Assembly: GCA_009841605.1 (NCBI GenBank)
Contig: VXLM01000139.1
Location: forward strand, 4,257 to 68,256
From: Dehalococcoidia bacterium
GTDB taxonomy: Bacteria > Chloroflexota > Dehalococcoidia > Lucifugimonadales > VXLM01
Reading direction: 5' to 3'
Length of the DNA: 64,000 bases
Both the position numbers and the translations under genes were made by a program. Shown piece by piece: positions 6,990 through 51,454 of the stretch. A model generated the notes under the pieces. That model made no database searches. It was not told where the DNA came from and worked only from the letters and a program-made list of their open reading frames with translations. Within the stretch, counting starts at the first letter, position 1; each line of letters starts with the position of its first letter.

Positions 6990-7039
6990 GCCATCGTAGG
7001 CCCACCTGGGACCCGCACTGAAATCGGGAGAGAGGCCAT

Positions 7040-9192: not shown

Positions 9193-9210
9193 TCGCACCA
9201 GGTGGGTCGC

Positions 9211-30791: not shown

Positions 30792-32278
30792 CCGTCCCAG
30801 AGCGCTGGCTGGAAAAGCACAACCGCAAGCTCCTCATGGACCGCAGCGCGCCGGGACGCATAGGCGCGAGCCATGCCAAGCTGGACGTCCCGGAGTCGGA
30901 ACTGCCCGACGCCGCCATGCTCCGCGACAACCTCGACATGCCGGAGGTCTCAGAAAGCGAGATCGTCCGCTACTTCTCGCAGCTCAGCCACTACAACTTC
31001 TCCATCGACCACAACTTCTATCCTCTCGGCAGCTGTACGATGAAGTACAACCCGAAGATCAACGATGAGATGGCCGCGCTGCCCGGCCTGTCCGAGATAC
31101 ACCCCTTCCAGCCCGAGGAAACGGTGCAGGGCGCACTCAAGCTCGTCTGGCACCTGCAGGAGATCCTCGCCGAGGTCATGGGCATGGCCGGTACCAGCGT
31201 CTCCCCCAAGGCCGGAGCCGAGAGTGAGTTCGCCGGGATGCTCATGGCGCGCGCCTATCACCTCTCGCGCGGCGACGACAAACGCAAAAAGGTACTCATA
31301 CCCGACAGCGCGCACGGCACCAATCCTGCCTCTGCCGTCGTTGCCGGGTTCCACGTCGTTTCCCTCCCGACCAACGAGGAGGGCAACACCGACCTCGCCG
31401 CCCTCGAGGCCGCAGTCGGCGACGACCTCGCGGGCTTCATGCTCACCCAGCCGAGCACCCTCGGCATCTTTGACACCAACCTGTCGGACGTAATACGGAT
31501 AGTCCGCGACGCCGGCGGCATCATGTACGGCGACGGCGCGAACCTCAACGCCCTGCTCGGCAAGGTCAAGCTGGGCGAGCTTGGCTTCGATGTCGTTCAC
31601 TCCAACCTGCACAAGACCTTCACCCAGCCGCACGGCGGTGGCGGCCCCGGAGCCGGCTCCGTCATGGTCAGCGAGCGACTGCTTCCCTTCCTCCCAGAAC
31701 CTCACGTCACGCGGACTGAGGACGAGGACGGAGAGCGTTTCTCCCTCTCGACGCCCCCGCAGTCAATCGGCAAGCTCGGCCCTTTCCAGGGCAACTTCGG
31801 CGCTCTCGTCCGCGCCTATGCCTACATCCGCACGCTAGGCGACGTTGGCGTCTCCCAGATTAGCGAGGACGCCGTAATCAACGCCAACTACATCCTCAGC
31901 CAGCTGCGAGGCACCTTCGATCTTCCGCAGGACCGCCACTGCAAGCACGAGGTGGTCTTCTCCGCCAAGAACCTTAAGGACGAGTTTGGAGTCTCAGGCA
32001 AGGACGTGTGCAAGAGGCTCATCGACTACGGCATCCACCCGCCGACGATGTACTTCCCTCTCCCCGACGTGGTCGAGGAGTCGCTCCTCATCGAGCCGAC
32101 CGAGACGGAGAGTAAAGAGACCCTCGACCAGTTCATCGAGGTGATGAAGCTCATCGCGAAAGAGGCCGAAGAAGATCCCGATCTTCTCCTCAACGCCCCG
32201 CACAACACGCCCAACACCCGCCTCGACGAGGCCCTCGCGGCACGCAGGCCGGTGCTGCGTTGGCGCAGAGACGACTAG
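30788..32278 (+). CDS. gcvPB: glycine dehydrogenase (decarboxylating) subunit 2
   Basis: ATGA overlap with gcvPA. PLGSCTMKYNP and the PLP-lysine block NLHKTF. The upstream part of ORF 30056 is out-of-frame overlap with gcvPA. Confidence 0.93.
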   Translation: MTVPERWLEKHNRKLLMDRSAPGRIGASHAKLDVPESELPDAAMLRDNLDMPEVSESEIVRYFSQLSHYNFSIDHNFYPLGSCTMKYNPKINDEMAALPGLSEIHPFQPEETVQGALKLVWHLQEILAEVMGMAGTSVSPKAGAESEFAGMLMARAYHLSRGDDKRKKVLIPDSAHGTNPASAVVAGFHVVSLPTNEEGNTDLAALEAAVGDDLAGFMLTQPSTLGIFDTNLSDVIRIVRDAGGIMYGDGANLNALLGKVKLGELGFDVVHSNLHKTFTQPHGGGGPGAGSVMVSERLLPFLPEPHVTRTEDEDGERFSLSTPPQSIGKLGPFQGNFGALVRAYAYIRTLGDVGVSQISEDAVINANYILSQLRGTFDLPQDRHCKHEVVFSAKNLKDEFGVSGKDVCKRLIDYGIHPPTMYFPLPDVVEESLLIEPTETESKETLDQFIEVMKLIAKEAEEDPDLLLNAPHNTPNTRLDEALAARRPVLRWRRDD

Positions 32279-37089: not shown

Positions 37090-37164
37090 GCAAGGTTCTA
37101 TTGACGCTTCCGCGCGGCGTTGCTACCCTACATCGACACTTGAGCGTTGCAACCTAGTGAGACT

Positions 37165-38184
37165 ATGGCGAAACTTCTCGAAGTCAACAATCTGACGACT
37201 CACTTCTACACCGACAACGGCGTCGTGGAGGCCGTCGACGGCATCTCATACTCGGTGGACGAGGGAGAGATCGTCGGCATCGTCGGAGAGAGCGGCTGCG
37301 GCAAGAGCGTCAGCGCCCTCTCCATCATGGGCCTGATACCCGACCCGCCCGGCAAGATCGTGGACGGCGAGGTCATCTTCGACGGGCAGGACCTCCTGCA
37401 ACTCTCCAACGCGCAGATGCGCAAGGTGCGCGGCAACGACATCGGTATGGTCTTCCAGGAGCCGATGACGTCGCTCAACCCGGTGCTCACCATCGGCAGG
37501 CAGCTCACTGAGACCCTCGAACTCCACCTGAACATGTCGGCAAGTGCGGCGAGCCAGCGCGCGGCGGAGCTTTTGAGTCTCGTCGGCATTCCCGACGCCG
37601 AGCGGCGACTGAAGGACTACCCCCACCAGATGAGCGGCGGAATGCGCCAGCGCGTGATGATCGCCATGGCCGTTAGCTGCAACCCGAAGCTCATCATCGC
37701 GGACGAGCCCACCACGGCGCTGGACATGACGATTCAGGCTCAGATTCTCGAGCTCATGCAGCGCCTCTCGAACGAGTTGGGGACAGCGATGATACTCATC
37801 ACCCACAACCTCGGCGTTGTCGCGCGGTACGCCAGTCGCGTCATCGTTATGTACGCCGGCTCCATCATCGAGGAGGGCACCGCTAAGCAGATCTACTACA
37901 ACCCCAGGCATCCGTACACGCTCGGACTGCTGCGCTCGGTCCCGAGGCTCGACGGAGAGGAGGGCGTCAAGCTCGAACCGATCGAGGGCCTCCCGCCAAA
38001 CCTCATCGGTCTCGGCGGCAGCTGCAACTTCGCGCCGAGATGTCGCTACGCGATTGATCAGTGCCTCACCGAAACTCCGATGCTCCAAGCTATCAGAGAA
38101 GAAACCCCGCCGCACCACGCGGCGTGCTGGCGGTCCGAGGACCTTCCCAACTTGGTCGGCTCGCCCGCGGCGGCAGGAGGATAG
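37165..38184 (+). CDS. ABC ATP-binding protein, OppD/DppD-like (no adjacent permease)
   Basis: Walker A GESGCGKS, signature MSGGMRQR, Walker [13 protein letters not shown]-terminal HPYTLGLL...C.F..RC. Confidence 0.9.
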
Positions 38185-38186
38185 AT

Positions 38187-39206
38187 TTGGTCGAGTCGAA
38201 CGGTTCAAGGCCCCTGATCGAGGTCAGGGACGTCAGGATGTACTTCCCCGTCACGTCGGGGATCGTTTTTCAGCGCAAGGTCGCGGAGGTCAAGGCGGTC
38301 GACGACGTCTCCATCACCATCAACAAGGGTGAGGTGCTCGGCCTCGTCGGCGAGAGCGGAAGCGGCAAGACCACGCTCGGCCGGGTGATCCTCCAGCTTC
38401 AACGCCAGACATCGGGCGACGTGTTCTACGACGGGGAGCGCCTCAACACCCTCAGCAACAAGGAGTTGAGGCCCATCCGCCGCAAGATGCAGGTCATCTT
38501 CCAGGACCCCTACGGCTCCCTCAACCCTCGCATGACGTGTGGCGACATCGTGGGCGAGCCGCTCTCGGTGCACAAGCTGACCGCCAGCAAGGGCGAATAC
38601 CAGGACCGCGTCGCGGAGCTCCTCCAGACCGTGGGTCTCAACCCGTTCATGGCCGACCGGTACCCGCACGAGTTCTCCGGCGGACAGCGTCAGAGAATCG
38701 GCATCGCGCGGGCGCTGGCGGTGAACCCCGACTTCATCGTCTGCGACGAGCCGGTCTCCGCGCTCGACGTGTCGATTCAGGCCCAGATCATCAACCTGCT
38801 TGAAGAGCTCAAGGAAAAGCTCCAGCTTACCTACCTCTTCATCGCCCACGACCTCTCCGTCGTGCGGCACATCAGCGACCGCGTGGCCGTCATGTATCTC
38901 GGCCACATTGTCGAGGTCGCCAGCCGCCAGGAGCTCTACGACAACCCCCTCCACCCGTACACGAGGGCGCTCCTCTCGGCCATTCCGATCCCCGACCCCG
39001 ACATGGAGGAGCAGCGCGAGCGCATCATCCTCCACGGCGAGCTGCCCAGCCCCATGTCCCCGCCCGAAGGCTGCGTCTTCCACACTCGTTGCCCCGTCAT
39101 GGTCGAGGAGTGCAAAGACGAGATGCCCCAGCTCCGCGAGGTTAGCCCCAACCACTGGGTCGCCTGCATCCGCGCCGACGGCTACGAGACCGCCCTGACG
39201 GCGTAA
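38187..39206 (+). CDS. ABC ATP-binding protein, OppF/DppF-like (no adjacent permease)
   Basis: TTG 38187 lies 2 nt after the upstream stop. Walker [10 protein letters not shown], signature FSGGQRQR, Walker [20 protein letters not shown]. Confidence 0.88.
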
Positions 39207-39448: not shown

Positions 39449-39682
39449 ATGGTAACGGTGAACGTCCACGAAGCGAAGACCCACCTGTCACGTCTGCTGG
39501 CGCAGGTCGAGGCGGGAGAGGAGGTCATCATCGCCCGAAACGGCAAGCCCGTCGCCCAGCTCGTGCGCTGCAAAAAGCGCGGCAAGCGGCAATTCGGCTC
39601 GATGAAGGGCCTGATAAGCATCGACGACCGCTTTTTTGAGCCGCTGTCGGAAGAAGAGTTGGCCGCCTGGGAGGGCGGCTGA
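39449..39682 (+). CDS. type II antitoxin, Phd/YefM family
   Basis: 77 aa. VNVHEAKTHLSRLLAQVEAGEEVIIARNGKPVAQLV is the classical Phd/YefM N-terminal fold pattern. Sits 3 nt upstream of a PIN gene. Confidence 0.85.
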   Translation: MVTVNVHEAKTHLSRLLAQVEAGEEVIIARNGKPVAQLVRCKKRGKRQFGSMKGLISIDDRFFEPLSEEELAAWEGG

Positions 39683-39685
39683 TCG

Positions 39686-40072
39686 TTGCGGCTGCTACTA
39701 GACACCCACGCATTCATTTGGTGGTTTGCCGGAAGCGAGCAGTTGCCCCAATCCGCCCGGCGGTTGATAGAAGCTGACGACAACGACGTGCTGATAAGCG
39801 CGGCGTCGGCATGGGAGATCGCAACCAAGCACCGAAAGGGCAAACTCCCGGAAGCGGATCCCCTGGTCCGCGACATGACCGGCGCCATAGCCGACCAGGA
39901 CTTCGAGGAGTTGTCCGTCACCGTGGACGACGCCGCGCGCGCCGGAGCGCTTCCCGGACCTCTCCGCGATCCCTTCGACCGAATGCTCATAGCGCAGGCG
40001 CTGTCGCGCAACCTCGTTCTCATTTCGAACGAGTCCCTCTTCGACCGCTACGACGTCCGTCGCTTGTGGTGA
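39686..40072 (+). CDS. vapC: type II toxin, PIN-domain ribonuclease VapC
   Basis: 128 aa with a TTG start. LLLDTHAFIWW, SAASAWEIA and RDPFDRMLIAQA supply the acidic PIN residues. Confidence 0.85.
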   Translation: MRLLLDTHAFIWWFAGSEQLPQSARRLIEADDNDVLISAASAWEIATKHRKGKLPEADPLVRDMTGAIADQDFEELSVTVDDAARAGALPGPLRDPFDRMLIAQALSRNLVLISNESLFDRYDVRRLW

Positions 40073-40210: not shown

Positions 40211-43200
40211 CTACCCCAACTCCCCGATGCGGAGGATACGCGCGAGCGAGAGCCGCCGGATGAGCATGATCAGGGCCAGCGTGATGACGGCGAAGATCAC
40301 GAGCATCACCGCGTAGGTGATGGCCAGCGCGCCCCAGTCTATGACCATCACGAACGGCGGAACGACCTTACCCCCAAAGTCGTCGTGGCCGAGGAACGGC
40401 ATGATCGTCGCGCCGAGCCTGCTCCCCATCCACGTGCCGAGGGCGAGTCCCACGGCTATGATCACCGTCTGTTCCAGCCACATCAGCATCATAAGCTGAC
40501 GCCCGGACAGCCCGGTCGTGCGCATGATGGCGAACTGCACCTGTCTGCTGCGGAACGACGAGTAGGCGTGTACGAGGAAGCCGAGGCAGCTCAGCAGCAG
40601 CACGGCGGAGAAGGCGATGAAGAGCAGCGCCCTCCAGCCCGCCTCCACGAGAGGATCGACGCTGGCGTCCTTCGCCCGGAACCGCTCTTCCCGGTCGAGC
40701 ACGGTGACCGAGCCGAATCCCTCGAGGGAACCGACGGTCTCCAACAGGCTCTCTCTCGGAGCGCCCGTGGTCGACGAAGCGATCCACAGGTCCTCCGGCA
40801 GGAAGGGCTGGTCGGCGACCCCGCTCGTAGCGAACGCGTTGAGGGCCGAGATGTCGGCGATCAAATAGGGTTTCAGATCGCTCGAAATGGTGGGGAACAG
40901 CTCCACCGACCCGACGATGGATATCGGAATCCGGGCGCGGTCGACCGATACCTCGAACTCGTCTCCGACACGGTGGTTCTCCCTGTTCAGGAACGCCTCG
41001 CTGGCCAGCACCTTGATCGGTGGCGGATCATCGCCGGCGAAGATGCCCCGAGGCGTCAGTGGCTCGCCCTTCGCCCACGTGAACACCGCCGCGCCGGGCA
41101 CGTTCTCGAAGACTTCCGAGGACGACTTTAGCTCGTCGCTGATGGAGTTTTCCGTGGTCTTGAGGAGCGACCAGTTGTCGATGGAATCGAACCCGTCGAG
41201 CAGCACCTGCAGTCCGTCGCTCATGGTCACGTGAACGTCGTCGAACAGCACCGTCCCGGGCTTGAGCGATACGCTGAGATTGGACTGCTCGACGTAGACC
41301 GCGCTCAGCTTGATCGGTCCGTTGGCAAGAAAGTCCTCTCGACCCTGCTCCGCCAGCGGTACATCGAGGCTGGTCCAGTCGCTCGAACTCACGAATCCCA
41401 GCTTGTAGGCCGCCTGCTGGTCGATTGCGTTCGTAAGGCGGGCTACTACCTGAAGCGTGGGCTGAATCCTGTCCGACTTGATTCTCGCGCCGATGGACAC
41501 GGCGTCGGGCGGCAACTCGATCCCGCCGCCCTTATAGACGGATTCGTCCGGGCGTATCCGTGCCAGCAACTCCTCGATCGGCTCGTCGGTGAAGTCGTCG
41601 CGGAACCACGCCACGTTATCGAAGTTGGAGCTGTTCAGACCGATCAGCTCGAACGAGCCGCCCTGCTGTCGTGTCAGGTCGCGCCCTGCCCGCTTGAGAA
41701 CCGCGCTGGCAGTATCCACGCCGGGTATGCGCTCATAGGCGATCTCTTCGGCGAACCGATTGCCTGTCATAAGCGCCTCATCGTCGGACGTTGACGTTCG
41801 GTTGACGCCGACGATCCGCACGTCGCTGCCGGAGACGTGAAGGATGCGCTCCTCGAAGCTGCGCTGGAGGGTCGTGCCGAAGCTCGACGCGAAGATGCCC
41901 AGCCCTGCCGTGAGGATCAGCAGGAGCGAGAGTCGGGAGTAGTGCGTCGGCTGGCGGGACATCTGCCACACGGTCATGGCGGCCGCCACCGGCAACACCT
42001 TGGCGAAGAGCTTGCTGATGAGGTTCATCGCCAACGGGAAGAGCCTGAGCAGCACCATCGCCGATGCCACGAGCACCAGTCCCGGCACTGCCAGCAGAAG
42101 CTCATCGGCCACCGCCGCCCCGAACACGTCGCGGGCCACCACCGATCCCTGCTCCGTGAGCTGGCGGAAGAGGAAGATCGCGATCAGAAGCAGCAGAACG
42201 TCAAGATAGTACCGCTGGAAGACGGGCAGTGCGTTTGGTCGGGACGACTGTTGCCGTTGCTGGGTGATTCCGAAGCGAGAAGCCTGAATCGCGGGAATCA
42301 GGAGCGCCACGAATCCCAGCACGCCGCCGAGTACACTCAGTGCATAGGCGGATGGCGATATCTCGACCGACAGCAGCCCACCGCCCGTCAGTCCGAAGAA
42401 AGCGGGCGTCAGGCCCAGCAGGCTGATGGTGAACGCCGCGATGATGGGCGCGACGATTGCCGCGAGGACGGCTATGGTCGCTCCTTCCAGGATGAACACC
42501 ATGAGTATCTGCGACGTGTCGGAGCCCCGGCTGCGGAACTGCGCCACCTCCGACCGCTGGTTCTCCACCAGCAACGACGACATGGTCGCCACGTAGTACA
42601 GGATCACGAAGGCGATGAGTATGAGCACGATGAACATGGGCAGCCTGCTGAAGAACAACCGCTGGTCGTACTCGATAAGGGCGTCGTCGAGGCCCGTCGT
42701 CTGGGACACCGTCTGCAGGGAGGCCACGGAGCGGCTGGCCATCACCTGGATGTTGGCGACGGTCAATTGCGCGTTATCGGCGTTTATCAGGCTCGGATCG
42801 GTCTTGAGATACCAGTAGTAGCCCGCGGACATGCTCCCTATGGACGGGCCGAGAGCCTCCAGGAACGCCTGCCGCGAGATGAAGAACGGCATCAGGCGAA
42901 GGTCGGTCGTCATCGTCTGGGTCTGGAGGGATTTCTCCGTGAAGTGAACCAGCTCGGCGTCATTGGTGTCTTCCCAGTCGAATGCGCCGGAGATCGTCAC
43001 GTACACGTGTGGGATGTCCGAGGAGATGGTCGGCACCGCGGCGAACCGGTCTCCCACCTGGGCCCCAAGCTCCTGCATCGCCTCGAGAGGAACAAGCGCC
43101 TCCAACTCCAGCGGCTGACCGCGCCCGACTGCCGTGCCGACGCTGGGCTGAGCGCCTTCAATCAGGGGTATGCGCTCTTCAAGGTCGTCGATGTATGCGA

Positions 43201-43630
43201 AGAACGTGCGGTCATCGCCGTCTGAGGCGGACTCCTCGCTTCCGGGGCTGCCAAGGTAGAAGGTGGGAGTGCGTGCGGCGTGGACGGAGTCCCGCAGCAT
43301 CCACGAGACGTGCCGGTTCACGAGCGGCACGATGACATTACTGACCTTGCCGTACTCCTCGTTATTGGTCGGGCCCCTGCTGGCGCGGACGGTGATGTTG
43401 AGCTGTTCCTGCGTGCGCCTTTCGAGAGAGTTCTTGAGGGCCAGCTCGCGGAGAGCCTCGAAGTAGATAACCGTGCCAGAAAGGATGGCCGACGCCAGCA
43501 CCACGCCGATCACGACGTACGAGAGCAGCCGCCAATGAGCAAGCGCGCGCTTGGCGACAAGCTGCCACGTCGCGATTATCCCGTAGGCGATCGCGTTCAG
43601 CCGCTCGTTTATGGTCTTCTTGTTCGTCAT
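40211..43630 (-). CDS. giant double-FtsX-domain membrane protein (YbbP/MacB-type permease architecture)
   Basis: 1139 aa. TM1 at about residues 35-57, ECD1 about 58-330, FtsX module about 331-450, central TM bundle, ECD2 about 590-998, second FtsX module about 999-1125. Confidence 0.8.
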   Translation of the reverse strand: MTNKKTINERLNAIAYGIIATWQLVAKRALAHWRLLSYVVIGVVLASAILSGTVIYFEALRELALKNSLERRTQEQLNITVRASRGPTNNEEYGKVSNVIVPLVNRHVSWMLRDSVHAARTPTFYLGSPGSEESASDGDDRTFFAYIDDLEERIPLIEGAQPSVGTAVGRGQPLELEALVPLEAMQELGAQVGDRFAAVPTISSDIPHVYVTISGAFDWEDTNDAELVHFTEKSLQTQTMTTDLRLMPFFISRQAFLEALGPSIGSMSAGYYWYLKTDPSLINADNAQLTVANIQVMASRSVASLQTVSQTTGLDDALIEYDQRLFFSRLPMFIVLILIAFVILYYVATMSSLLVENQRSEVAQFRSRGSDTSQILMVFILEGATIAVLAAIVAPIIAAFTISLLGLTPAFFGLTGGGLLSVEISPSAYALSVLGGVLGFVALLIPAIQASRFGITQQRQQSSRPNALPVFQRYYLDVLLLLIAIFLFRQLTEQGSVVARDVFGAAVADELLLAVPGLVLVASAMVLLRLFPLAMNLISKLFAKVLPVAAAMTVWQMSRQPTHYSRLSLLLILTAGLGIFASSFGTTLQRSFEERILHVSGSDVRIVGVNRTSTSDDEALMTGNRFAEEIAYERIPGVDTASAVLKRAGRDLTRQQGGSFELIGLNSSNFDNVAWFRDDFTDEPIEELLARIRPDESVYKGGGIELPPDAVSIGARIKSDRIQPTLQVVARLTNAIDQQAAYKLGFVSSSDWTSLDVPLAEQGREDFLANGPIKLSAVYVEQSNLSVSLKPGTVLFDDVHVTMSDGLQVLLDGFDSIDNWSLLKTTENSISDELKSSSEVFENVPGAAVFTWAKGEPLTPRGIFAGDDPPPIKVLASEAFLNRENHRVGDEFEVSVDRARIPISIVGSVELFPTISSDLKPYLIADISALNAFATSGVADQPFLPEDLWIASSTTGAPRESLLETVGSLEGFGSVTVLDREERFRAKDASVDPLVEAGWRALLFIAFSAVLLLSCLGFLVHAYSSFRSRQVQFAIMRTTGLSGRQLMMLMWLEQTVIIAVGLALGTWMGSRLGATIMPFLGHDDFGGKVVPPFVMVIDWGALAITYAVMLVIFAVITLALIMLIRRLSLARILRIGELG

Positions 43631-43655
43631 CGGTTGATCGGATTATAGCAATTCA

Positions 43656-44645
43656 CTATTTTGATTCCGGCAGTCGGATGGCGTACAGGGATCCGTCCGT
43701 CGACCCCACGTACACGACTCCGTCGGCCACCGTGGGTGACGAAGAAACGGGGCCCTCCGTCGCGTATTGCCAGAGCAGTTCCCCCGTCTCTGCGGATGCC
43801 GCGTAGAGATTGTGGTCGAACGATCCGAAGTACACCACGCCCTCGGCTATGGCCGGAGACGACTCGACCCGGCCGCCGGTAGGGAGTCGCCATCGAAGCG
43901 ACCCAACTTCCGCGTCCAACGCATAGAGATGACCGTCCCTCGATCCCACGTACACGACTCCTTCCGCTACCGCCGGTGATGAGACCACCCAGTCATTGGT
44001 GCGATATCGCCATCTCTCCACGCCGGTGTTTGCGTCAACGGCGTAAACATGACCGTCCCAAGAGCCGAAGTACACGTACCCGTTCCCGACAGCGGGTGAG
44101 GAAAACACAACGTTGTCCGCCTTCGCGCGCCACATGATGGTCCCCGTCCCGGCGTCCAGTGCGTACAGGTGCCCATCATTCGATCCGACGTACACCACGC
44201 CGTCGACAACGCGAGGTGATGACATAATCCAGTCTTCCGTGCCCGAGCGCCAGACGATTTCGCCCGTCGCGGCCTCCAGCGCGTAGACGTGATGATCGGT
44301 GGAGCCGACGTACACTATCCCATTGACGACCGCCGGGGACGAAAATACGCCCTCCCCAAGCCGGCTGCGCCAGACCACTTCGCCCGACGATGCGGCAAGT
44401 GCATACACATACCCGTTCCACGAGCCGACGTACACAACTCCCTCGGTCACACGCGGCGATGAATAGACCTTGTCGCCTGAGTCGAACGACCAGCGCTGCT
44501 CTCCGAGCTCGGCGTCCAGCGCCAGCAGACTGCCGTCCTCCGAGCCGACGAATACCACCCCATCAGCTACGGTAGGGCTGGACGATACGGCGTCTCCGGT
44601 CTTGTGCCGCCGGATGAGATGTGCTTCTTTCAACGTCTGTTGCAT
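43656..44645 (-). CDS. eight-bladed PQQ-like beta-propeller repeat protein without signal peptide
   Basis: 329 aa made of 8 units of about 40 aa, SSP.V.DGVVYVGS.DG.LYALDA.TGE..W. Starts 5 nt after the upstream FtsX gene stop. N-terminus MQQTLKEAHLIRRHKTGD is not hydrophobic. Confidence 0.85.
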   Translation of the reverse strand: MQQTLKEAHLIRRHKTGDAVSSSPTVADGVVFVGSEDGSLLALDAELGEQRWSFDSGDKVYSSPRVTEGVVYVGSWNGYVYALAASSGEVVWRSRLGEGVFSSPAVVNGIVYVGSTDHHVYALEAATGEIVWRSGTEDWIMSSPRVVDGVVYVGSNDGHLYALDAGTGTIMWRAKADNVVFSSPAVGNGYVYFGSWDGHVYAVDANTGVERWRYRTNDWVVSSPAVAEGVVYVGSRDGHLYALDAEVGSLRWRLPTGGRVESSPAIAEGVVYFGSFDHNLYAASAETGELLWQYATEGPVSSSPTVADGVVYVGSTDGSLYAIRLPESK

Positions 44646-44650
44646 ACGAA

Positions 44651-47600
44651 CTACTCGCCGAAACGTGATATTGCCCGCAGGTCAAGCTGGCCCACTCCCC
44701 TGTTGAGCAGAACGAGTGCGGCGACGAACAGGAGACCCAGCGCGACGTAGGTGGTCCCCATGATGAGCCAGTCGGTCGAAAGGATGAAGGGCGGCGTGAC
44801 CGGAAGTCCGGTCTCGGTAATCGCTAATGGCGAGACCGTGAGACGGCTCATCTGGAATCCGGCCCAAGTACCGAGACCGAGACCGATCGCGGCCACCGCC
44901 AGATGCTCGAAGCCCAGGAGCCTGAGCAGTTGGCCTCTGGTGAGACCCAGGGTCCGCAACGAACCGATCTCGACTGCGCTCTTCTTGGCGAAGAGCAGGA
45001 GATACGTGACATACCCGACAGCGGCGGCAAAGACCGCTATTGCCGGAGAGAGTATCGTCATCGGCTGCCAACCTGCCGCGACGAAGGGATTGATCTGCAG
45101 ACTTTCGAGACGGCCCTGCCCGTCGCGGACGGACCCACCCTGCGGGCCGAGTATCTCAACCACGGCCTCCCCGACTCGCTCGTGCGAGCCCGGCTTGAGA
45201 TCGTAGTACAGGTCCAGTGCTCGTATTCGATGGTGATTGAGAAGCACGTTGGCGCGGTCCAGCAGGCTGTTCAAATCGGTCAGAATCAGCCCGCCCTGGC
45301 TCGGATCGTGTGTCGGGAAGAAGTCGACCACTTCCACCACCCTCATGCGGAGCCAGCGCAGGCCCACCAAGGCGATGAAGGTGCTCCCCTCCTGCCGGTC
45401 GGGACGAACGAGAGACGAGTCTATCACCACGGGCAGAGGACCCGGAACGGATGTCGGGTAGAAACCTCGCAGCCCCTGCGTGGTCTGCCCGCTGAAAGTG
45501 TAGGCTATTGCCTTCGAGCCGTTTCGCACCTCGTTCGCGGAGAACTCGACCACCTCTGTAGATGCCGCCGACGTCAGGATCGCCTCCCACTTGAGATCGG
45601 CTCCCTCGAAGTCGTCGAGCACCAGCTCTTCGTTCTCAAAGCCCACCGTGGCGATGATGTCGTCGATGTAGAGCGTGCCCGGCGTCACGGGGGAGGCATC
45701 AAGACCTGCGTTAGGATCGCCCCCCGGCTCGAACATGTGGATCGAGACAAGCGAGAACGGAGGTTTGACGTGGTCGGGAATATTGCCGATCACGAACTGC
45801 CAGTCTTCCGTGCGAAGCGTGTTGAAGATGACGGTCTGTAGCTCACCCCGCTCGTTTTCGATTTGCGCGTACAGGTCGAGTCCTGGAATGAACGGATCGG
45901 GCTTTACCCACAGGCCGATGCCGTTCGTGTCGTCGGGCAGAGGTATCCTTCCCGTCGGCGCATTGGGATTGAGCCGGTCCATCAGTTGTGGCAGCGTGCT
46001 GTCCGAAAAGTCGTCGCGATACCACGCGACATCGGCGAAGCCCGACGTGTCCACGGCGAGTACCTCCGCGGTGGAACCGCCGGCCGTACCGCGCTCTCGG
46101 AGCCCTCGTACCACGTTCTCGACATCCTCAAGCTCCTGGGACTTGCGATGAACTTCCTGCACGCCTCCTTGGGCGAGCAGAGAGGCGGTGACCCGCAGAT
46201 CGGCCCCTTCCTCGAAGAGGACGCGCTCGATCTGGCTGCGTTCCAGCGTGCCGCCGACCGTTGTCGCCAGGATGCCGAGACCGGTCGCGAGGACGAGCAG
46301 CAGGATGAGCCACGTGTATTGGAGCGGGTTGCGCGACATGTGGAGCAGACCGATCTCCAGCCACACCGGCGTCACGCGGCTGAGACCGGTGAATAAGACG
46401 AACAGCAGCTGCGCCGGTACCACGGCAATGAGCCCCCATGTCGGGACGGTCAGCAGATCGCCGGACACCGGAGGCCGCAGGACGACGAATCCAGCGACGA
46501 GCAGCGCCTGTACGACGAGCCCGGCGTATCTGCGCTTTCGGTCGTGCCAGTAGCGTTTCGTCGCCCAGAAGGCGATGAGGACCGCCAACGCCAACGCTCC
46601 CGGCAGCAGCCAGTCAAGCGTCTCATTCCCACGTTCGCGCCAGTAGACCCCAACGACGGATGCGACGACCGACGCCGCCACCAGCAGGTCCACGATGCGG
46701 CTCGACTCGCCGCTGATGTACCGGACGATCATCGGGAAGAACCGCATGAACACCAGCGTCACGACGATCAGGAAGAGAACGGGCGCGACGAGGAGCACCT
46801 CGTTGACCTCGGTCTCCTCGAAGTAGCCGCTGTAAACGAACTGTCCGCGCTTCTGGAGCTCCCAGTAGATCAGGCCCCCGAAGACGAGGATGCCGATGTC
46901 TAGATTGAATCTCTGGAGGAAGGGGAGTCCAAGCGGACGTGATGTCTGAAGCCGGCGTAGGAGCACGCCTCCCTGCGCGCTGAGCACGTTGGGCACAACG
47001 AAAATCGCAAGGCAGAGCAAGCCGACCCCCAGTGAGATGATGAAGGGAGTGGCGGCTAGGCGTATCGGCATGAGATTGCCCTGGTTCATCTCCTCGAAGA
47101 AGGGCAGCACTCCCGAAACGGCGACCATTCCGTAGGCCAGGAACGGGGTCACGATCACGGCTGTCGCGACCATCACGAGACCTTCGGTCATGTATATCCG
47201 GGTCAGCTGCGAGAGAGTCGCCCCGAGGGTCTTGAGGAGCGACGCGTCGCCTTCCCTGCTCTGCGTCAGGTACGAAACGAGAATGCCGAGGAAGAACAGC
47301 ACGGTCAGCAAAATCACCGTGAGCAACAGCAGCATCGGTATCTTGGCGTAGAAGTTGCGTAGCTGTCCCGACTCCGTCAGGTTCTCCACGAACTCCGTGG
47401 TAGCGTCGGCGTCGGGAAGCTCGGAGGTAATGGCGTCGGAGAAGGCGCTGAATCGCTCCCTGGCCTCTGCCGCCGACCACTCTTTGAGTCGCTCCGGGTC
47501 GATCTTGACCACCCATTGAGGGCTTACCACTGCGCCGGGGTAGGTCTCCGAGAGAAGCTGCGCCATAACCTCCGGCGCGACGATGATCGGAATGTTTGAG

Positions 47601-48910
47601 AGGGAATTGTCCGACAGGACGAGGAACGGCGTGTCCTGCCGTTGAGGATCGAGGCTCAGCAGCGCGCCGGTGGAGCGCCAGTACGGCGAGTTCTTGTCGT
47701 CCTCTTCGTAATAGCCCACTACCCGCACCGTGATGATTTCACGCTCACCAAGTTCCGGTGAGAAGTAAAATTCGTCCCCGATCTCGGTCTGCGTCCGCAG
47801 GGATACGCCGCGATGCACGATAGCTTCGATCATGGGGCCGCGCGGGCCTTGTGTGATTTCCGTGCTCGCCGTTCCGCCCTGCTCGAACACGATGTTGTCC
47901 TCGAAATTCGAGAGCGACACGAGGAATCCCAGGCGCGCGATGATGCCCTGACCTGTACTTACCGGAAGATTATTGTTCGGCGTGCTGACCAGCATAGGCA
48001 CGCCCTTGACGTACGTCTCCTGTCCGAGGAAGGTCGTCTCCGCGACGAGGTCCTGCAGGGCGACACGCATGGCCGTCTCGTCGGCGAAGAGGGTTAGAGG
48101 AGTTTCCCCGGGTCTCTGAACCGTCAAGTACGGCGCGGGAGTTTCGATGACGGGCGGACTGAGCGCCTCGCCGTTCGAACCCCACACACGGGCTTCCGGG
48201 TCCAGCGGCTCGAAGATGCCGGTGATGACGATGCCGATGCCCGGTGGCCCGACCGGTATCGGAGCCGGCGTCGAATCGAGAAGCTCCGCGAGTTCGTCAT
48301 CGTCCTCACCCTCGTCCGTAGCCGTCGATACCGCTCTCTGAGCCAGGAGATCGGCGGCGAGAATGACCTCGTCGTCGACTTCGAGCTCGAAGCGCTCAGC
48401 CATTTCCGACGAAACCACGGCCTCGATAACCGCTCCGAACGTGCCGCTGTCGATCGTGCCGGAAGCCATCTCCCCCTTGACGAACCTCACGTGCGACGGC
48501 AGGTTCGAGAGGTGCTGGAGATAGCCCCGCGAGACGTAGATGCCCTCTCCTGTCCCCTCAGGCAAGGGTAAGTCCGGCGTTCCTATGATGGCGACACGGC
48601 TCTTGATGAATTGTTCATGCCCGTCGTACACGTCCGCAATGTGCTCTTCGATGGCGTCCGTGACGACCTGATCGGCGTGCCTGAGCGATTTCTCGGTCGC
48701 CACCACTTCCGCGCCGAAGACATCGATCTTCGGCTCGTCGATCCGGTCAAGCGCGGCGTTGAACGAAAGCTGGTCGAGGGATTCGAGGTATATCGGCGTG
48801 CCCGCGCCGATGGTCGTGGCAATCAGTATGCCGATGAACACCGTCAGCAGAAGCTTCCAGTCGTCGGCGATGCGCCGAACGATTACCCTTGTTAGCGAGA
48901 GATTCTTCAT
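44651..48910 (-). CDS. giant double-FtsX-domain membrane protein (paralog of 40211-43630)
   Basis: 1419 aa. TM1 at about residues 19-42, ECD1 about 43-523, FtsX module about 524-645, about 6-7 central TMs, ECD2 about 890-1283, FtsX module about 1284-1405. Shares VAW(Y/F)RDDF(S/T)D and other collinear motifs with the paralog. Confidence 0.8.
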   Translation of the reverse strand: MKNLSLTRVIVRRIADDWKLLLTVFIGILIATTIGAGTPIYLESLDQLSFNAALDRIDEPKIDVFGAEVVATEKSLRHADQVVTDAIEEHIADVYDGHEQFIKSRVAIIGTPDLPLPEGTGEGIYVSRGYLQHLSNLPSHVRFVKGEMASGTIDSGTFGAVIEAVVSSEMAERFELEVDDEVILAADLLAQRAVSTATDEGEDDDELAELLDSTPAPIPVGPPGIGIVITGIFEPLDPEARVWGSNGEALSPPVIETPAPYLTVQRPGETPLTLFADETAMRVALQDLVAETTFLGQETYVKGVPMLVSTPNNNLPVSTGQGIIARLGFLVSLSNFEDNIVFEQGGTASTEITQGPRGPMIEAIVHRGVSLRTQTEIGDEFYFSPELGEREIITVRVVGYYEEDDKNSPYWRSTGALLSLDPQRQDTPFLVLSDNSLSNIPIIVAPEVMAQLLSETYPGAVVSPQWVVKIDPERLKEWSAAEARERFSAFSDAITSELPDADATTEFVENLTESGQLRNFYAKIPMLLLLTVILLTVLFFLGILVSYLTQSREGDASLLKTLGATLSQLTRIYMTEGLVMVATAVIVTPFLAYGMVAVSGVLPFFEEMNQGNLMPIRLAATPFIISLGVGLLCLAIFVVPNVLSAQGGVLLRRLQTSRPLGLPFLQRFNLDIGILVFGGLIYWELQKRGQFVYSGYFEETEVNEVLLVAPVLFLIVVTLVFMRFFPMIVRYISGESSRIVDLLVAASVVASVVGVYWRERGNETLDWLLPGALALAVLIAFWATKRYWHDRKRRYAGLVVQALLVAGFVVLRPPVSGDLLTVPTWGLIAVVPAQLLFVLFTGLSRVTPVWLEIGLLHMSRNPLQYTWLILLLVLATGLGILATTVGGTLERSQIERVLFEEGADLRVTASLLAQGGVQEVHRKSQELEDVENVVRGLRERGTAGGSTAEVLAVDTSGFADVAWYRDDFSDSTLPQLMDRLNPNAPTGRIPLPDDTNGIGLWVKPDPFIPGLDLYAQIENERGELQTVIFNTLRTEDWQFVIGNIPDHVKPPFSLVSIHMFEPGGDPNAGLDASPVTPGTLYIDDIIATVGFENEELVLDDFEGADLKWEAILTSAASTEVVEFSANEVRNGSKAIAYTFSGQTTQGLRGFYPTSVPGPLPVVIDSSLVRPDRQEGSTFIALVGLRWLRMRVVEVVDFFPTHDPSQGGLILTDLNSLLDRANVLLNHHRIRALDLYYDLKPGSHERVGEAVVEILGPQGGSVRDGQGRLESLQINPFVAAGWQPMTILSPAIAVFAAAVGYVTYLLLFAKKSAVEIGSLRTLGLTRGQLLRLLGFEHLAVAAIGLGLGTWAGFQMSRLTVSPLAITETGLPVTPPFILSTDWLIMGTTYVALGLLFVAALVLLNRGVGQLDLRAISRFGE

Positions 48911-49046
48911 GTCACGAAAACATGCAGGAGATCGTCGGCTGCTTGATGAGACCCACTTTCGTTAGCCCTAATCCCAAATGAAGGACAACGCCCCCGATAG
49001 TCTTAAACGTCGTTCACGCATGGGTGTTAGCCGTCCCACGTGAACA

Positions 49047-49177
49047 CTAAGGAACTATCTCAAAATACGCTTCGACACGTTTTCTCCACACGCGGGCTCA
49101 GAGAACAATACGTTCGCCCTGAGCTTGTCGAAGGGCAATTCTTGGCCAACAAACATAGTTTTAAGATAGTTTCCAAG
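49047..49177 (+). mobile_element. Family Y element (degenerate TIR CTAAGGAACTATCTC / GATAGTTTCC) with a family E core
   Basis: About 131 bp, collinear with 53830-53956. Confidence 0.7.
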
Positions 49178-49259
49178 CCTAGCTGCACCTCTTGGAAATC
49201 TAATGATAGTCCCGTCCAGTTCGCGTATCAACCGCTTGGGCTCGTCGAAGTTCCGCCGT

Positions 49260-49523
49260 GTAGCTGCTCAGAGACCGTGAGCGCGCTCGACACACACAGC
49301 CACCGTCATACCCGCGAAGAGCTTCCCCCGTACCCCGATACGGGAGAGACCTTTGCATAACCCCTGATGGGAGCCTGGAAATCCCTTCCCCCTTGATGGG
49401 GGAAGGTTAGGATGAGGGTGAAATTCGCGCCACTAAGGCAATACCTGGAGGTTATGCAAATGTCACCGAAAGCCCGGAATCCGCAGGGGCGAGGCATTCC
49501 CCTCGCCAACTCTGAACACTTAC
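49260..49523 (+). mobile_element. Family C element with nested insertions (family I hairpin plus 112-bp family Z unit carrying an A-variant hairpin)
   Basis: Outer ends gtagctgctcagagaccgtgagcg / aactctgaacacttac. The C hairpin is split after catacccgcgaag. Z unit at 49350-49461. Confidence 0.8.
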
Positions 49524-49539
49524 CGAGCCGTCAGCCCGG

Positions 49540-49568
49540 TTGACGCCTCGCCCCCTGACGACTATCCT
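49540..49568 (+). promoter_or_regulatory. candidate promoter TTGACG-N17-TATCCT positioned for a leaderless ygfZ mRNA
   Basis: The -10 element ends 6 nt before ATG 49575 and no SD is present. Confidence 0.3.
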
Positions 49569-49574
49569 CGAAAT

Positions 49575-50582
49575 ATGGGACCTGTAGCAAATCTCCATGC
49601 CGAAGTTCTCCTCGATGGATCCTTGACCGCAGAGGAGCAATACCGCGCCCTGACTTCGGGCGTCGCGGTGCTGGACCGTTCCGACGCTGGGCGACTAGCC
49701 CTCACGGGCGATGACGCGCTCGACCTCCTGAACCGCCTTTCCACCAACGAGCTCGCGACCCTCGAAGTCGGCGCAGGTGCTGCCACCGTCCTGACGACGA
49801 ACAAGGGACGTATCGTTGACTTGCTTCACGTCCACCGGAGCGAAGACCGGTTGGTGGTATTCACCTCCCCGGAGAATCAGCAGCGCGTGGCCGAGTGGAT
49901 TGACTTCTATACCTTTGTTGAGGATGTGGAGATCGAAGACGTAACTAGCGAGACGGCTATGCTCTCGCTCACCGGCCTCGATTCGACGAAATTCTTGGAC
50001 GAGCTCACGGACGGCCAGGCATCGTTGTTAGCGACCTATGAACGATTGAGCACACAGATTTCCGATGTCACTGCCGAGGTGTACCGCAGCGACTTCCTGG
50101 GGCCGCCTTCATTCGACATCGTCTTCGACGCCGAACACAGGGATAACCTCTTCGGAGTACTCACAGACAATGGCGCGACACCCGCTGGCCCGGACGTGAT
50201 CGAGGCCCTTCGAGTCCAGCGCGGCATCCCCGCGTTCGGCAAGGAGTTGACCGAGGACTACAACCCGCATGAGGCCAACCTCGTCCACCACGTGAGCTTC
50301 TCGAAGGGATGCTACATCGGGCAAGAGGTAATCGCCCGGCTCCAGACCTACAAGAAAGTCAGTAAGTACCTCGTCGGCCTTCGGTGGGACGGCGACGGCC
50401 CTGCACCGGGCTCCTTCCTGACGCACGACGGCAAGCGGATGGGCATAGTCACGTCCGTGGCCCGCCTGCCCCATACCGGAGCAAACGTCGGTCTTGCCTA
50501 CGTCCGCAAGCAGTTCGTCGACGACGGCACGACGGTTGTCGACGAGACCGGAATCGAGATCACGATCAAGGTCCTCATCTAG
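49575..50582 (+). CDS. ygfZ: YgfZ/GcvT-like folate-binding protein
   Basis: 335 aa. GcvT-fold N-terminal half and the family signature KGCYIGQE. Confidence 0.8.
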   Translation: MGPVANLHAEVLLDGSLTAEEQYRALTSGVAVLDRSDAGRLALTGDDALDLLNRLSTNELATLEVGAGAATVLTTNKGRIVDLLHVHRSEDRLVVFTSPENQQRVAEWIDFYTFVEDVEIEDVTSETAMLSLTGLDSTKFLDELTDGQASLLATYERLSTQISDVTAEVYRSDFLGPPSFDIVFDAEHRDNLFGVLTDNGATPAGPDVIEALRVQRGIPAFGKELTEDYNPHEANLVHHVSFSKGCYIGQEVIARLQTYKKVSKYLVGLRWDGDGPAPGSFLTHDGKRMGIVTSVARLPHTGANVGLAYVRKQFVDDGTTVVDETGIEITIKVLI

Positions 50583-51454
50583 CCCGCCATCTCGTCGAAC
50601 ACAATGCGCGATATCCGCGCCAGCTTCGGATCGAGGTCGGTGCTGTCTGTTATCCGCTTCGCCATGATCGCCACGGCGTACGGCCCGCTCGGTCCCCACA
50701 CGATTCCCACGTCGCAGCGGACGCTGTAGACGCCTCCCGTCTTGTGGGCCGCGATGACGTCCGGGGGCAGGTAGTACGGGATGATGCTCCTGAGCTTCTG
50801 GCGCTTGAGAATATGGAGCATTCCGTCCCGTGACCCCTCCGACAGGAAATCGCCGTTGTGGACGATCTCCAGCAGGCGCACCATGTCGGCAGGCGACGAG
50901 ACGTCGGACTTCTCCTCGTTCAGCGCGTCGCAGTCGGGCGACAGCCCACGGTATCCCTGCTCCACCCGGTCGGATACCTCCCAGAAATCGTCCAGCGACT
51001 CGCTGACCGTGAGTCCCGCCAGGCTGAAGAGAAGATCGCGGCACGACATCGGCAGCTTGGTCTTGTTGAGGCCGAGATCCCCCATCGTGCGATTCAGGTC
51101 GTCCTTCCCCACGGTGTGATACAGGATGTCGGTGGCGAGGTTGTCGCTCACGATGATCATCAGCATCGCGAGATCGTGCAGATTCGGAGCCAGGCCATTC
51201 CCAAGCTCTCTCAAGACCCCTGAGCCCGGCACTCGGAGGATGTCGGTCAGCTCGACACGCTGCGAGAGATCGAGCGTGCCCGCATCGACCTGGCGATAGA
51301 GCTCCGCCAGTATGGGCACCTTGAAGGTGCTCGCGGTGAAGAACACCTCATCGGCGTTGTGCTCGATCGTCTTCCCCGTCTCGAGGTGTCGCGCGGCCAC
51401 GCCCACCACGCCGGGAACTTCGGAGACGGCCTCTGAAATTGTCGTCATGTTCAA
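50579..51454 (-). CDS. class-A beta-lactamase-like serine hydrolase, no signal peptide
   Basis: 291 aa. S-x-x-K (STFK), S-D-N (VSDNLATD) and K-T-G (HKTGG) motifs in class-A order. The N-terminus lacks a hydrophobic leader. Confidence 0.8.
   Translation of the reverse strand: MNMTTISEAVSEVPGVVGVAARHLETGKTIEHNADEVFFTASTFKVPILAELYRQVDAGTLDLSQRVELTDILRVPGSGVLRELGNGLAPNLHDLAMLMIIVSDNLATDILYHTVGKDDLNRTMGDLGLNKTKLPMSCRDLLFSLAGLTVSESLDDFWEVSDRVEQGYRGLSPDCDALNEEKSDVSSPADMVRLLEIVHNGDFLSEGSRDGMLHILKRQKLRSIIPYYLPPDVIAAHKTGGVYSVRCDVGIVWGPSGPYAVAIMAKRITDSTDLDPKLARISRIVFDEMAG

Follow-up and report, generated by a model that had tools for sequence, protein, structure and literature searches.

Tandem giant double-FtsX permeases of a SAR202 lineage whose locus lacks an ATPase gene

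Gene order and boundaries of the locus

The window, meaning the whole 64,000-nt stretch of DNA analyzed here, comes from a Dehalococcoidia bacterium of the marine Chloroflexi group SAR202 (assembly GCA_009841605.1, contig VXLM01000139.1, positions 4,257–68,256). Members of SAR202 abound in the deep ocean and in sponges, and a large part of their membrane proteome has no annotation. Three co-directional genes lie on the minus strand of the window. Gene A (44651..48910) encodes a 1419-aa fused double-FtsX permease, gene B (43656..44645) a bare eight-blade PQQ-like β-propeller of 329 aa, and gene C (40211..43630) a YbbP-like fused double-FtsX permease of 1139 aa. These assignments come from the open reading frames and Pfam, with hydropathy for the two permeases, the repeats for B, and an AF2 model and Foldseek for C. 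The gene coordinates confirm the spacing given in the original prediction, 5 nt between A and B and 25 nt between B and C, and the 5-nt gap suggests translational coupling.

The B-C spacer holds a candidate extended −10-like motif, TGCTATAAT (43642..43650, minus strand), 11 nt 5′ of the ATG of C. This motif, a sequence match only, is kept in both propeller-bearing subclades of the locus and is missing wherever the propeller is missing. Upstream of A, the best σ70-like match (TTGATA-17-TATCAT, 49203..49231, minus strand) is likewise no more than a candidate promoter, as the count of such matches in this region equals the shuffle expectation. The spacer upstream of A (48911–49574) had been described as filled with repeats, but a search for tandem repeats there found none. 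Its longest exact direct repeat is 9 nt and its longest inverted repeat 11 nt; repeats at least as long turn up in 54 and 17% of dinucleotide shuffles, respectively. A search for a glycine riboswitch or other RNA upstream of gcvT in this spacer gave no Rfam match at E ≤ 0.1.

On the other side, a Phd antitoxin and PIN toxin cassette (39449..40072, plus strand) is convergent with C, as had been predicted, and marks a boundary outside the system. The cassette is conserved in the window's clade and sits where paralogous operons hold their two ATPase genes. In two related loci (L008 and L016), a relic copy of the last ∼58 codons of C is retained beyond it. No LolD-type ATPase is encoded within the 64-kb window; all four of its ABC ATPases carry the oligo_HPY domain of the Opp/Dpp type, in line with the original prediction. 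The Opp/Dpp-type ATPases at 37147–39206 (plus strand) are the nearest to A and C, and their synteny is conserved across the clade, so one could imagine that they power the two permeases. We regard this as extremely improbable, however: they belong to a convergent Opp/Dpp importer operon, they share only 30–37% identity with the cognate ATPases of the permease family, and, to our knowledge, nucleotide-binding subunits of ABC systems match their own permease class.

Fold and topology of the permeases

Both A and C match the Pfam FtsX domain (PF02687) in two stretches each, at 43.7 bits for A and 38.4 bits for C against a gathering cutoff of 25.5. Together with hydropathy, these matches bear out the double-FtsX layout first read from the sequence. 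The companion check by sequence for MacB_PCD gave nothing in either protein. NCBIfam LolC/E models match the first FtsX module of both A and C, a motif of the type E-x-x-x-x-R-x-x-G is conserved in all four modules, and the two proteins are paralogs (27% identity, E 3e-53). Hydropathy gives about 10 TM helices in C, with extracytoplasmic domains (ECDs) between TM1-2 (ECD1, residues 61–322) and TM7-8 (ECD2, residues 589–993) and coupling helices between TM2-3 and TM8-9 (at about residues 357–372 and 1027–1046). In A, which has about 14 predicted TM helices, ECD1 (residues 43–516) contains an internal duplication (E 1e-14) and is followed by FtsX module 1, a central bundle that includes four additional TM helices, ECD2 (residues 890–1282), and FtsX module 2.

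Structure prediction had been proposed for each protein and for their complex; it covered C and returned a YbbP-like fold. A Foldseek search with the AF2 model of C (pLDDT 79.7) ranked Escherichia coli YbbP first, with a match across the whole protein (9ge6_A, E 5e-19; 9ge7_A, E 1e-15), ahead of MacB, LolC/E, and BceB. The model places a short helix at residues 359–367, between TM2 and TM3. ECD2 of C (pLDDT 86.9) matches the periplasmic domains of LolE and MacB (E 9e-5 to 1e-4, probability 1.0) and is thus predicted to be a MacB/LolE-like periplasmic domain with a β-sandwich insert; local PLAT-like fold matches in ECD2 are weak (E about 1e-3). With FtsX matches above the gathering score in both proteins, and an ECD of the MacB/LolCE (Porter/Sabre) fold and a coupling helix between TM2 and TM3 in the model of C, A and C are FtsX/MacB-type (type VII ABC) permeases. 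C is YbbP-like in that a single chain carries 10 TM helices, two pseudo-symmetric FtsX halves joined by TM5-6, and two ECDs, and A departs from this plan in its number of TM helices.

Gene family, ATPase linkage, and selection

The original prediction had treated this architecture as unrecognized, but it proves to belong, as one branch, to a large SAR202 family of paired giant permeases whose common form has an ATPase pair downstream. The family, found in Dehalococcoidia/SAR202, forms at least 1206 clusters when grouped at 50% identity, and the few members with a source name all go under the bare label "ABC transporter permease." In 40 of the 83 loci with a C-like gene, the permease pair is followed immediately 3′ by two LolD-type ATPase genes. 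The products of these paralog-linked genes score best against LolD, YbbA, FtsE, and MacB models, and their Walker A, Walker B, and signature motifs are intact; an AbrB/SpoVT domain seen by eye in the C-terminal tail of the first ATPase found no support in Pfam. The premise that FtsX/MacB-type permeases normally have a LolD/MacB-type ATPase alongside holds, the common form of this family being tandem permease genes followed by two distinct LolD-type ATPase genes. This four-gene core of two fused double-FtsX permeases and two LolD-type ATPases is unusual. The family has expanded by gene duplication and has so far been undescribed: the literature yielded no paper joining SAR202 with FtsX, LolD, or MacB and only passing mentions of a duplicated orphan permease.

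The adjacent cognate ATPase is indeed missing at this locus, as first noted, and in every close relative as well. The window's orthologous clade numbers 14 loci at 70–97% identity, and in none of the 14 is a LolD-type ATPase found within 10 kb. The absence is therefore not a one-off loss in this genome. The clade has 100% bootstrap support, and its sister is an ATPase-linked locus (L041, 87%). Other ATPase-less clades have 99–100% support each, and no replicate of 100 unites all ATPase-less loci as one group. ATPase linkage has been lost in the window's lineage and independently in at least three other clades, at least four times in total. Nine genomes hold both an ATPase-less ortholog and an ATPase-linked paralog, and in the two closest complete chromosomes the two lie ∼110–130 kb apart. 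Some complete chromosomes, such as OY762633.1 and OZ220672.1, show only ATPase-less loci among the 80 loci retained out of 152 matches. The paralogous operons that share a genome with these orthologs were searched for a second ATPase pair, and each proved to have one pair only. ATPases 5 kb upstream in loci of the L023 type (30–38% identical) were considered as a replacement and rejected as part of a BPD_transp_1 importer operon.

Could A and C be decaying remnants of an operon stripped of its ATPases? The ATPase genes are missing, a toxin-antitoxin cassette has been inserted at the 3′ end of C, and A has been lost in one genome (L011). Against this reading, the frames of A and C are intact and full-length in each of 13 loci, among which dS is as high as about 1.5, and dN/dS is 0.06–0.15 for A and C across dS 0.2–1.5 (0.07–0.13 for A alone). 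A and C are under strong purifying selection, and because of this selection analysis we take decay to be refuted.

The four coupling helices are 86–96% identical within the window's clade, at or above the protein averages, and all four carry fixed clade-specific substitutions. The first coupling helix of C reads ENQRSEVAQFRSRGSD in this clade versus E[DE]RRxEVALLRSRGA in the family consensus, and that of A reads LLKTLGAT versus LL[RK][TS]RG[VA]G, with loss of a family-conserved Arg. In the other ATPase-less clades, the coupling helices keep the ATPase-linked consensus. The substitutions thus argue against simple sharing of a paralog's ATPases and fit another partner, whether or not it is a dedicated ATPase. 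They also lend some weight to the idea that A and C are an ATPase-independent derivative acting as a passive scaffold, as a receptor or sensor, or with another cytoplasmic partner on re-tuned coupling helices, as does the absence of a LolD-type ATPase from the window and the flanks of its orthologs. Unlinked duplicated FtsX permeases also have a named precedent, the ADOP family (TIGR03434, NCBIfam). Yet C retains the coupling-helix core E-x-x-x-x-R-x-x-G, its fold is unchanged from that of the ATP-driven YbbP, no other partner gene is conserved among the neighbors across the clade, and the same genomes contain LolD-type ATPases. On this balance, we consider an ATPase-independent derivative unlikely.

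The gene between the permeases encodes a PQQ-like β-propeller (PF13570, 341.6 bits versus a cutoff of 133; PF13360, 206.2 versus 27.6), and eight repeats of ∼40 aa can be read in its sequence. Sequence and hydropathy reveal no signal peptide, lipobox, TM helix, or hydrophobic N terminus, and an export signal is absent from every B ortholog, so the description of an eight-bladed, cytoplasmic-looking propeller stands. The closest relatives of B, by comparison, usually carry export or anchor signals. B is not BamB (TIGR03300, 223 versus a cutoff of 285.2; PRK11138, 219.6 versus 423; no lipoprotein signal), and it scores far below the cutoffs of PQQ dehydrogenase models. A search for its homologs was flooded by generic PQQ-repeat proteins at 35–57% identity, a result uninformative on its origin, and a metagenome scan for orthologs returned nothing above 52% identity and no further contexts.

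The neighborhood comparison upheld the permease pair without an ATPase throughout the clade but not the triad as a conserved unit, because B is present in only seven of the 15 assessable orthologous loci (the window, L004, L005, L009, L010, L012, and L032). It is missing in the other eight (L003, L006, L007, L008, L011, L014, L015, and L016), where A and C are spaced by 35–70 nt except in L011, which also lacks A. This pattern bears on the proposal that the propeller stands in for the ATPase as the cytoplasmic partner in a true functional triad. The position of B directly behind A, its lack of an export signal, and purifying selection on it (dN/dS 0.13–0.20) would all suit such a role. However, B is missing from L006 and L007 even though their permeases are 95% identical to those of the window, the presence of B makes no difference to the coupling helices, B evolves at about twice the rate of A and C, and a β-propeller is no energy source. 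The proposal is largely refuted by the presence and absence pattern, and we hold it to be improbable. B is a lineage-specific, variable accessory gene, an optional extra to the permease pair.

Energy supply and comparison with known systems

We favor the view that A and C work as a type VII ABC permease pair, drawing their power from ATPases encoded at other sites, and that B is a dispensable accessory. Each permease would be one chain whose two FtsX modules mimic a MacB/LolCE dimer, offering two cytoplasmic coupling helices on which two nucleotide-binding subunits could dock and two large extracytoplasmic domains on helical stalks. By analogy with YbbAP, two ATPases would serve one permease (PMC12646458). 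The window's lineage has lost both ATPase genes from the locus, where the toxin-antitoxin cassette now abuts C. A and C would remain functional, most likely driven by LolD-type ATPases from elsewhere in the genome, either those of an ATPase-linked paralogous operon resident in the same genome or a dedicated pair at an unlinked site. Binding and hydrolysis of ATP would then set the stalk helices and extracytoplasmic domains in motion, a mechanotransmission that would perform work on the outer side of the membrane. The motion might plausibly extract or expel a hydrophobic or envelope-bound substrate, a class suggested by analogy with YbbAP and LolCDE and by the weak PLAT-like fold matches. B may have been inserted between A and C as a cytoplasmic accessory particular to this lineage.

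The locus now has a place in a family, large and so far undescribed, whose members are tandem giant YbbP-like type VII ABC permeases. At least four losses of linkage under strong purifying selection raise the question of whether type VII permeases share ATPases in trans or work without them. In the weaker reading, one ATPase pair could serve several paralogous giant permease pairs in trans. Some sugar importers share ATPases in this manner; we know of no description of it for type VII systems. A bolder and unlikely reading is that A and C are uncoupled from ABC ATPases altogether, their four coupling helices re-tuned and frozen for another cytoplasmic partner. If true, they would be the first FtsX-type mechanotransmitter to be driven, or read out, by a partner that is not an ABC ATPase. 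For annotation, when an FtsX permease in these genomes looks like an "orphan," the likeliest explanation is that it is a paralog of an ATPase-linked operon elsewhere in the genome.

The closest known system is YbbAP(-TesA), a type VII ABC transporter with a fused double-FtsX permease (PDB 9GE6, 9GE7, and 9GE8), in which E. coli YbbP has 10 TM helices, ECDs between TM1-2 and TM7-8, coupling helices between TM2-3 and TM8-9, and a TM5-6 linker (PMC12646458). YbbP is the best full-length structural match of C and shares all of these features with it, and the YbbA model gives good scores to the ATPases encoded in the paralogous operons. The sequence identity to YbbP is only 11–12%, however, and both proteins are longer, C by about 340 aa and A by about 620 aa. 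A β-sandwich is inserted in ECD2, and A is set further apart by about four additional TM helices and by the duplication of a subdomain in ECD1. Where YbbAP has one permease and one ATPase gene, the family has two tandem permeases with two different ATPase genes, and the window's locus has no ATPase gene. No TesA-like gene was found among the conserved neighbors of the clade's loci.

BceAB of Bacillus subtilis (PDB 7TCG and 8G4C) is similar in its 10-TM single-chain permease with two FtsX-type halves, which binds two ATPase subunits. The fold match of BceB to C is significant (E 4e-8 to 1e-7), but BceAB has its ATPase gene adjacent and pairs with the BceRS two-component system, which has no equivalent here. 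BceB has one extracytoplasmic domain. MacB, LolCDE, and FtsEX share the FtsX Pfam domain, the Porter/Sabre-like ECD fold, the coupling helix, and presumed mechanotransmission but are built from dimerizing 4-TM subunits, whereas A and C fuse two modules per chain. The ADOP proteins (TIGR03434), a family of duplicated FtsX permeases from Acidobacteria that seldom have an ATPase gene next to them, resemble A and C in their duplicated FtsX architecture and in having no ATPase gene alongside. Membership in that family is ruled out by a score of 16.4 bits against a cutoff of 622.3. ADOP also differs in phylum and in size, and in the family described here the ATPase-linked ancestral state is visible in sister loci.

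Gene order around the operon

The open reading frames bear out the three closely spaced, co-directional genes of the original prediction. All lie on the minus strand: A (44651-48910, 1419 aa), B (43656-44645, 329 aa), and C (40211-43630, 1139 aa), with gaps of 5 nt between A and B and 25 nt between B and C. The two FtsX modules expected in each large protein are likewise supported, as Pfam FtsX matches two stretches of A (43.7 bits) and two of C (38.4 bits), above the gathering score of 25.5. NCBIfam LolC/LolE models match the first module of each protein, and the two proteins are paralogous, aligning over 639 residues at 27% identity (E 3e-53).

The toxin-antitoxin pair predicted downstream is a Phd/PIN pair (39449-40072) convergent with C, beyond which lie two convergent Opp/Dpp-type ATPase genes. 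This cassette is found directly 3' of C throughout the orthologous clade, which comprises the window locus and its closest relatives, and occupies the slot held by ATPase genes in paralogous operons. In two orthologous loci (L008, 13507-14378; L016, 13692-14566), a second, relic copy of the last ~58-61 codons of C follows the cassette; the cassette appears to have inserted within the 3' end of C, bringing or duplicating a replacement end.

Upstream of A, a 664-nt spacer leads to a divergent gcvT-like gene. This spacer was described as repeat-filled, but it has no tandem repeats, its short repeats are at chance level only, and an Rfam search of it returned no match. Just upstream of the operon region, the gcvT-like gene faces a convergent class A beta-lactamase-family gene (50579-51454, minus strand; PF13354, E 4.5e-61), and glycine-cleavage-related genes are present at 30056-32278 and 49575-50582. 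All four ABC ATPases of the window carry an oligo_HPY domain, in agreement with their predicted Opp/Dpp type, and are at most 37% identical to the cognate ATPases of the permease family. Their genes form two separate sets in the 64 kb (4995-11251 and 37147-39206), the first preceded, judging by ORF layout, by a putative binding protein and two permeases.

The ATPase-linked form and its repeated loss

Full-length homologues of C number in the hundreds; few are named, and these come from Chloroflexi or the SAR202 cluster and are annotated as "ABC transporter permease" or "FtsX-like permease". When all 1.84 billion representatives were scanned with phmmer, 1206 clusters were obtained at E <= 1e-30, many aligning end to end with C (26-49% identity, 1083-1553 aa); named members among the clusters sampled are from SAR202/Dehalococcoidia only. 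Of 152 loci matched in GTDB species representatives, 80 were analysed; they come from 60 Dehalococcoidia/SAR202 genomes, which often have two or three each. In nearly all of the 80, A-like and C-like genes are adjacent on the same strand.

Two ATPase genes directly follow the C-like gene in 40/83 loci. These ATPases score highest against LolD, YbbA, FtsE, and MacB models, and the two of a paralogous operon are 45% identical to each other, with catalytic motifs intact in both. In its common form, then, the system has a core of four genes, for two fused double-FtsX permeases and two distinct LolD-type ATPases. To our knowledge, a type VII system of this composition has not been described, and none was found in the literature on SAR202.

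The first paralogue ATPase (L002, 13407-14291) is extended at its C-terminus by ~65 aa, and the second ends in a Pro/Asp-rich tail. The extension resembles an AbrB/SpoVT domain by eye, an assignment for which Pfam gave no support. This first ATPase is ~91% conserved between loci, compared with ~69% for the adjoining permeases. In the paralogous ATPase-linked clade, the A-like gene is preceded on its own strand, at a distance of 76-353 nt, by a gene for a conserved ~465-aa protein (L002, 4588-5988, and 13 other loci); inspection by eye suggests a cytoplasmic protein, and neither Pfam nor NCBIfam gave a match. In another paralogous clade, a Pfam-confirmed acyl-CoA dehydrogenase gene precedes the A-like gene in the same orientation (L070, 5189-6313, and 17 other loci), at 20-170 nt in most of the 18, and locus L001 has SDR and enoyl-CoA hydratase genes just 3' of its ATPases. 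In a further clade (L044, L046, L053, L056, L064, and L076), C-like genes have neither a detectable adjacent A-like partner nor an ATPase; the gene adjacent upstream in L044 is RNase D-like (3'-5' exonuclease plus HRDC), and a homologue is likewise placed in the other five loci.

The missing ATPase of the original prediction is real and extends well beyond this genome. Among the window's orthologues (L003, L004, L006-L012, L014-L016, and L032; C identity 70-97%), none has a LolD-type ATPase within 10 kb, and synteny includes Opp-type ATPases and glycine-cleavage genes. Absence is thus fixed in the window clade and is not the simple local loss that had been the competing explanation. One orthologue, L011 (5693-9866; C 83% identical), has no A upstream and carries instead genes for a ricin-lectin-domain protein (808 aa) and a methyltransferase.

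A distance-based neighbour-joining tree (100 bootstrap replicates) places the window clade (100%) as sister to an ATPase-linked locus, L041 (87%). Three further ATPase-less clades have 99-100% support, one of them sister to ATPase-linked L040 (100%), and the ATPase-less loci formed a single group in 0/100 replicates. This scattering indicates that linkage was lost at least four times.

Propeller B is a dispensable accessory

B is a PQQ-like beta-propeller (PF13570, 341.6 bits) with eight ~40-aa repeats and an N-terminus lacking a hydrophobic stretch, consistent with the cytoplasmic-looking, eight-bladed protein first described. No export signal was found in any orthologue of B, and its closest relatives elsewhere (50-57% identity) have signal peptides, lipoboxes, or anti-sigma-plus-TM anchors. 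A search of metagenome contigs yielded no closer relatives.

The idea that the three genes form a conserved unit fails, as B is missing from eight orthologous loci (L003, L006, L007, L008, L011, L014, L015, and L016). The loci that carry it fall into two groups: the window with L004 and L005 (90% identity), and L009, L010, L012, and L032 (70%). Loci without B have an unrelated 35-70-nt spacer between A and C, except L011, which also lacks A. Because the two B-bearing groups are not sisters in the tree, their distribution requires two or more gains or losses. The B-C spacer holds a perfect extended -10 motif, TGCTATAAT (43642-43650, minus strand), 11 nt before the ATG of C; both propeller-bearing subclades conserve it, and loci that lack B lack it too. 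This shared motif favours one insertion of B followed by losses, and it may be an internal promoter giving a near-leaderless C transcript. B is under purifying selection (dN/dS 0.13-0.20), and its evolutionary rate is about double that of A and C. Variable across orthologous loci yet selected, B is therefore a real but dispensable accessory.

Coupling helices, proposed mechanism, and fold

A and C are not decaying, as their dN/dS against six orthologous loci is 0.06-0.15 (dS 0.2-1.5). Their four coupling helices, the ATPase-docking elements CH1 and CH2 of each protein, are 86-96% identical inside the window clade, which argues for a conserved cytoplasmic contact. The main unexplained observation is that this clade has fixed, clade-specific substitutions in these helices. 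CH1 of C reads ENQRSEVAQFRSRGSD (family consensus E[DE]RRxEVALLRSRGA), CH1 of A reads LLKTLGAT (consensus LL[RK][TS]RG[VA]G), and CH2 of A reads EIGSLRTLGLTR (consensus ExGFLQSLGLSR). Other ATPase-less clades retain the ATPase-linked consensus.

The most economical explanation is that ATPases are supplied in trans. An ATPase-less orthologue and an ATPase-linked paralogue occur together in nine genomes (with 80 of the 152 matching loci covered), and the two loci are ~112 and ~130 kb apart in the two closest complete chromosomes having both (C 95% identical to that of the window). Closed chromosomes of the window clade include OZ220720.1, OY763089.1, OY762443.1, and OZ244722.1. Among the 80 loci, chromosomes OY762633.1 and OZ220672.1 are represented by ATPase-less loci only. 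The partners could be the pair of the paralogous operon, shared between systems, or a dedicated unlinked pair. Each paralogous operon has one ATPase pair only. A dedicated unlinked ATPase accounts for the clade-specific coupling helices better than simple sharing does, and a non-ABC partner would also be compatible with them. With ATPases provided in trans, and by analogy with YbbAP and BceAB, A and C would each dock two nucleotide-binding subunits on their two coupling helices. ATP-driven closure would then pass through stalk helices to the extracytoplasmic domains (ECDs), which would do work on a substrate on the membrane's outer face.

With low confidence, three features point to a hydrophobic or envelope-bound substrate: the LolE/MacB/YbbP-like ECD, a weakly PLAT-like insert, and the conserved genes next to some paralogous pairs, which encode acyl-CoA dehydrogenase, enoyl-CoA hydratase, and SDR proteins. 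Modelled alone (pLDDT 86.9), ECD2 of C matches the periplasmic domains of LolE and MacB (E ~1e-4). Its insert is a beta-sandwich with weak local likeness to PLAT/LH2 lipid-binding domains (E ~1e-3, ~100 residues), a hint and not a finding. ECD1 of A contains an internal tandem duplication (residues ~102-222 and ~301-422, 33% identity, E 1e-14), to which much of its additional length over the A-like proteins found in other clades can be attributed.

Overall, the absence of the ATPase is real, holds across the clade, and recurs within a large uncharacterised SAR202 family, and the system is a type VII ABC system of the YbbP-like kind. By hydropathy, C has ten TM helices, with ECD1 between TM1-2 (residues 61-322) and ECD2 between TM7-8 (residues 589-993); A follows the same plan with about four additional central helices and a longer ECD1. 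Structure prediction, which covered C and its ECD2, supports a YbbP-like fold. The best whole-length matches of the AlphaFold2 model of C (65 homologues; pLDDT 79.7, pTM 0.60) are to Escherichia coli YbbP (9ge6_A, E 5e-19; 9ge7_A, E 1e-15), followed by MacB, LolC/E, and BceB. TM-scores are modest (0.33-0.45), as expected from the extra domains and flexible domain arrangement. YbbP has 10 TM helices, of which TM5-6 serve as a linker; its periplasmic domains sit between TM1-2 and TM7-8 and its coupling helices between TM2-3 and TM8-9, and each YbbP binds two YbbA (PMC12646458). This published topology is the plan found in C.
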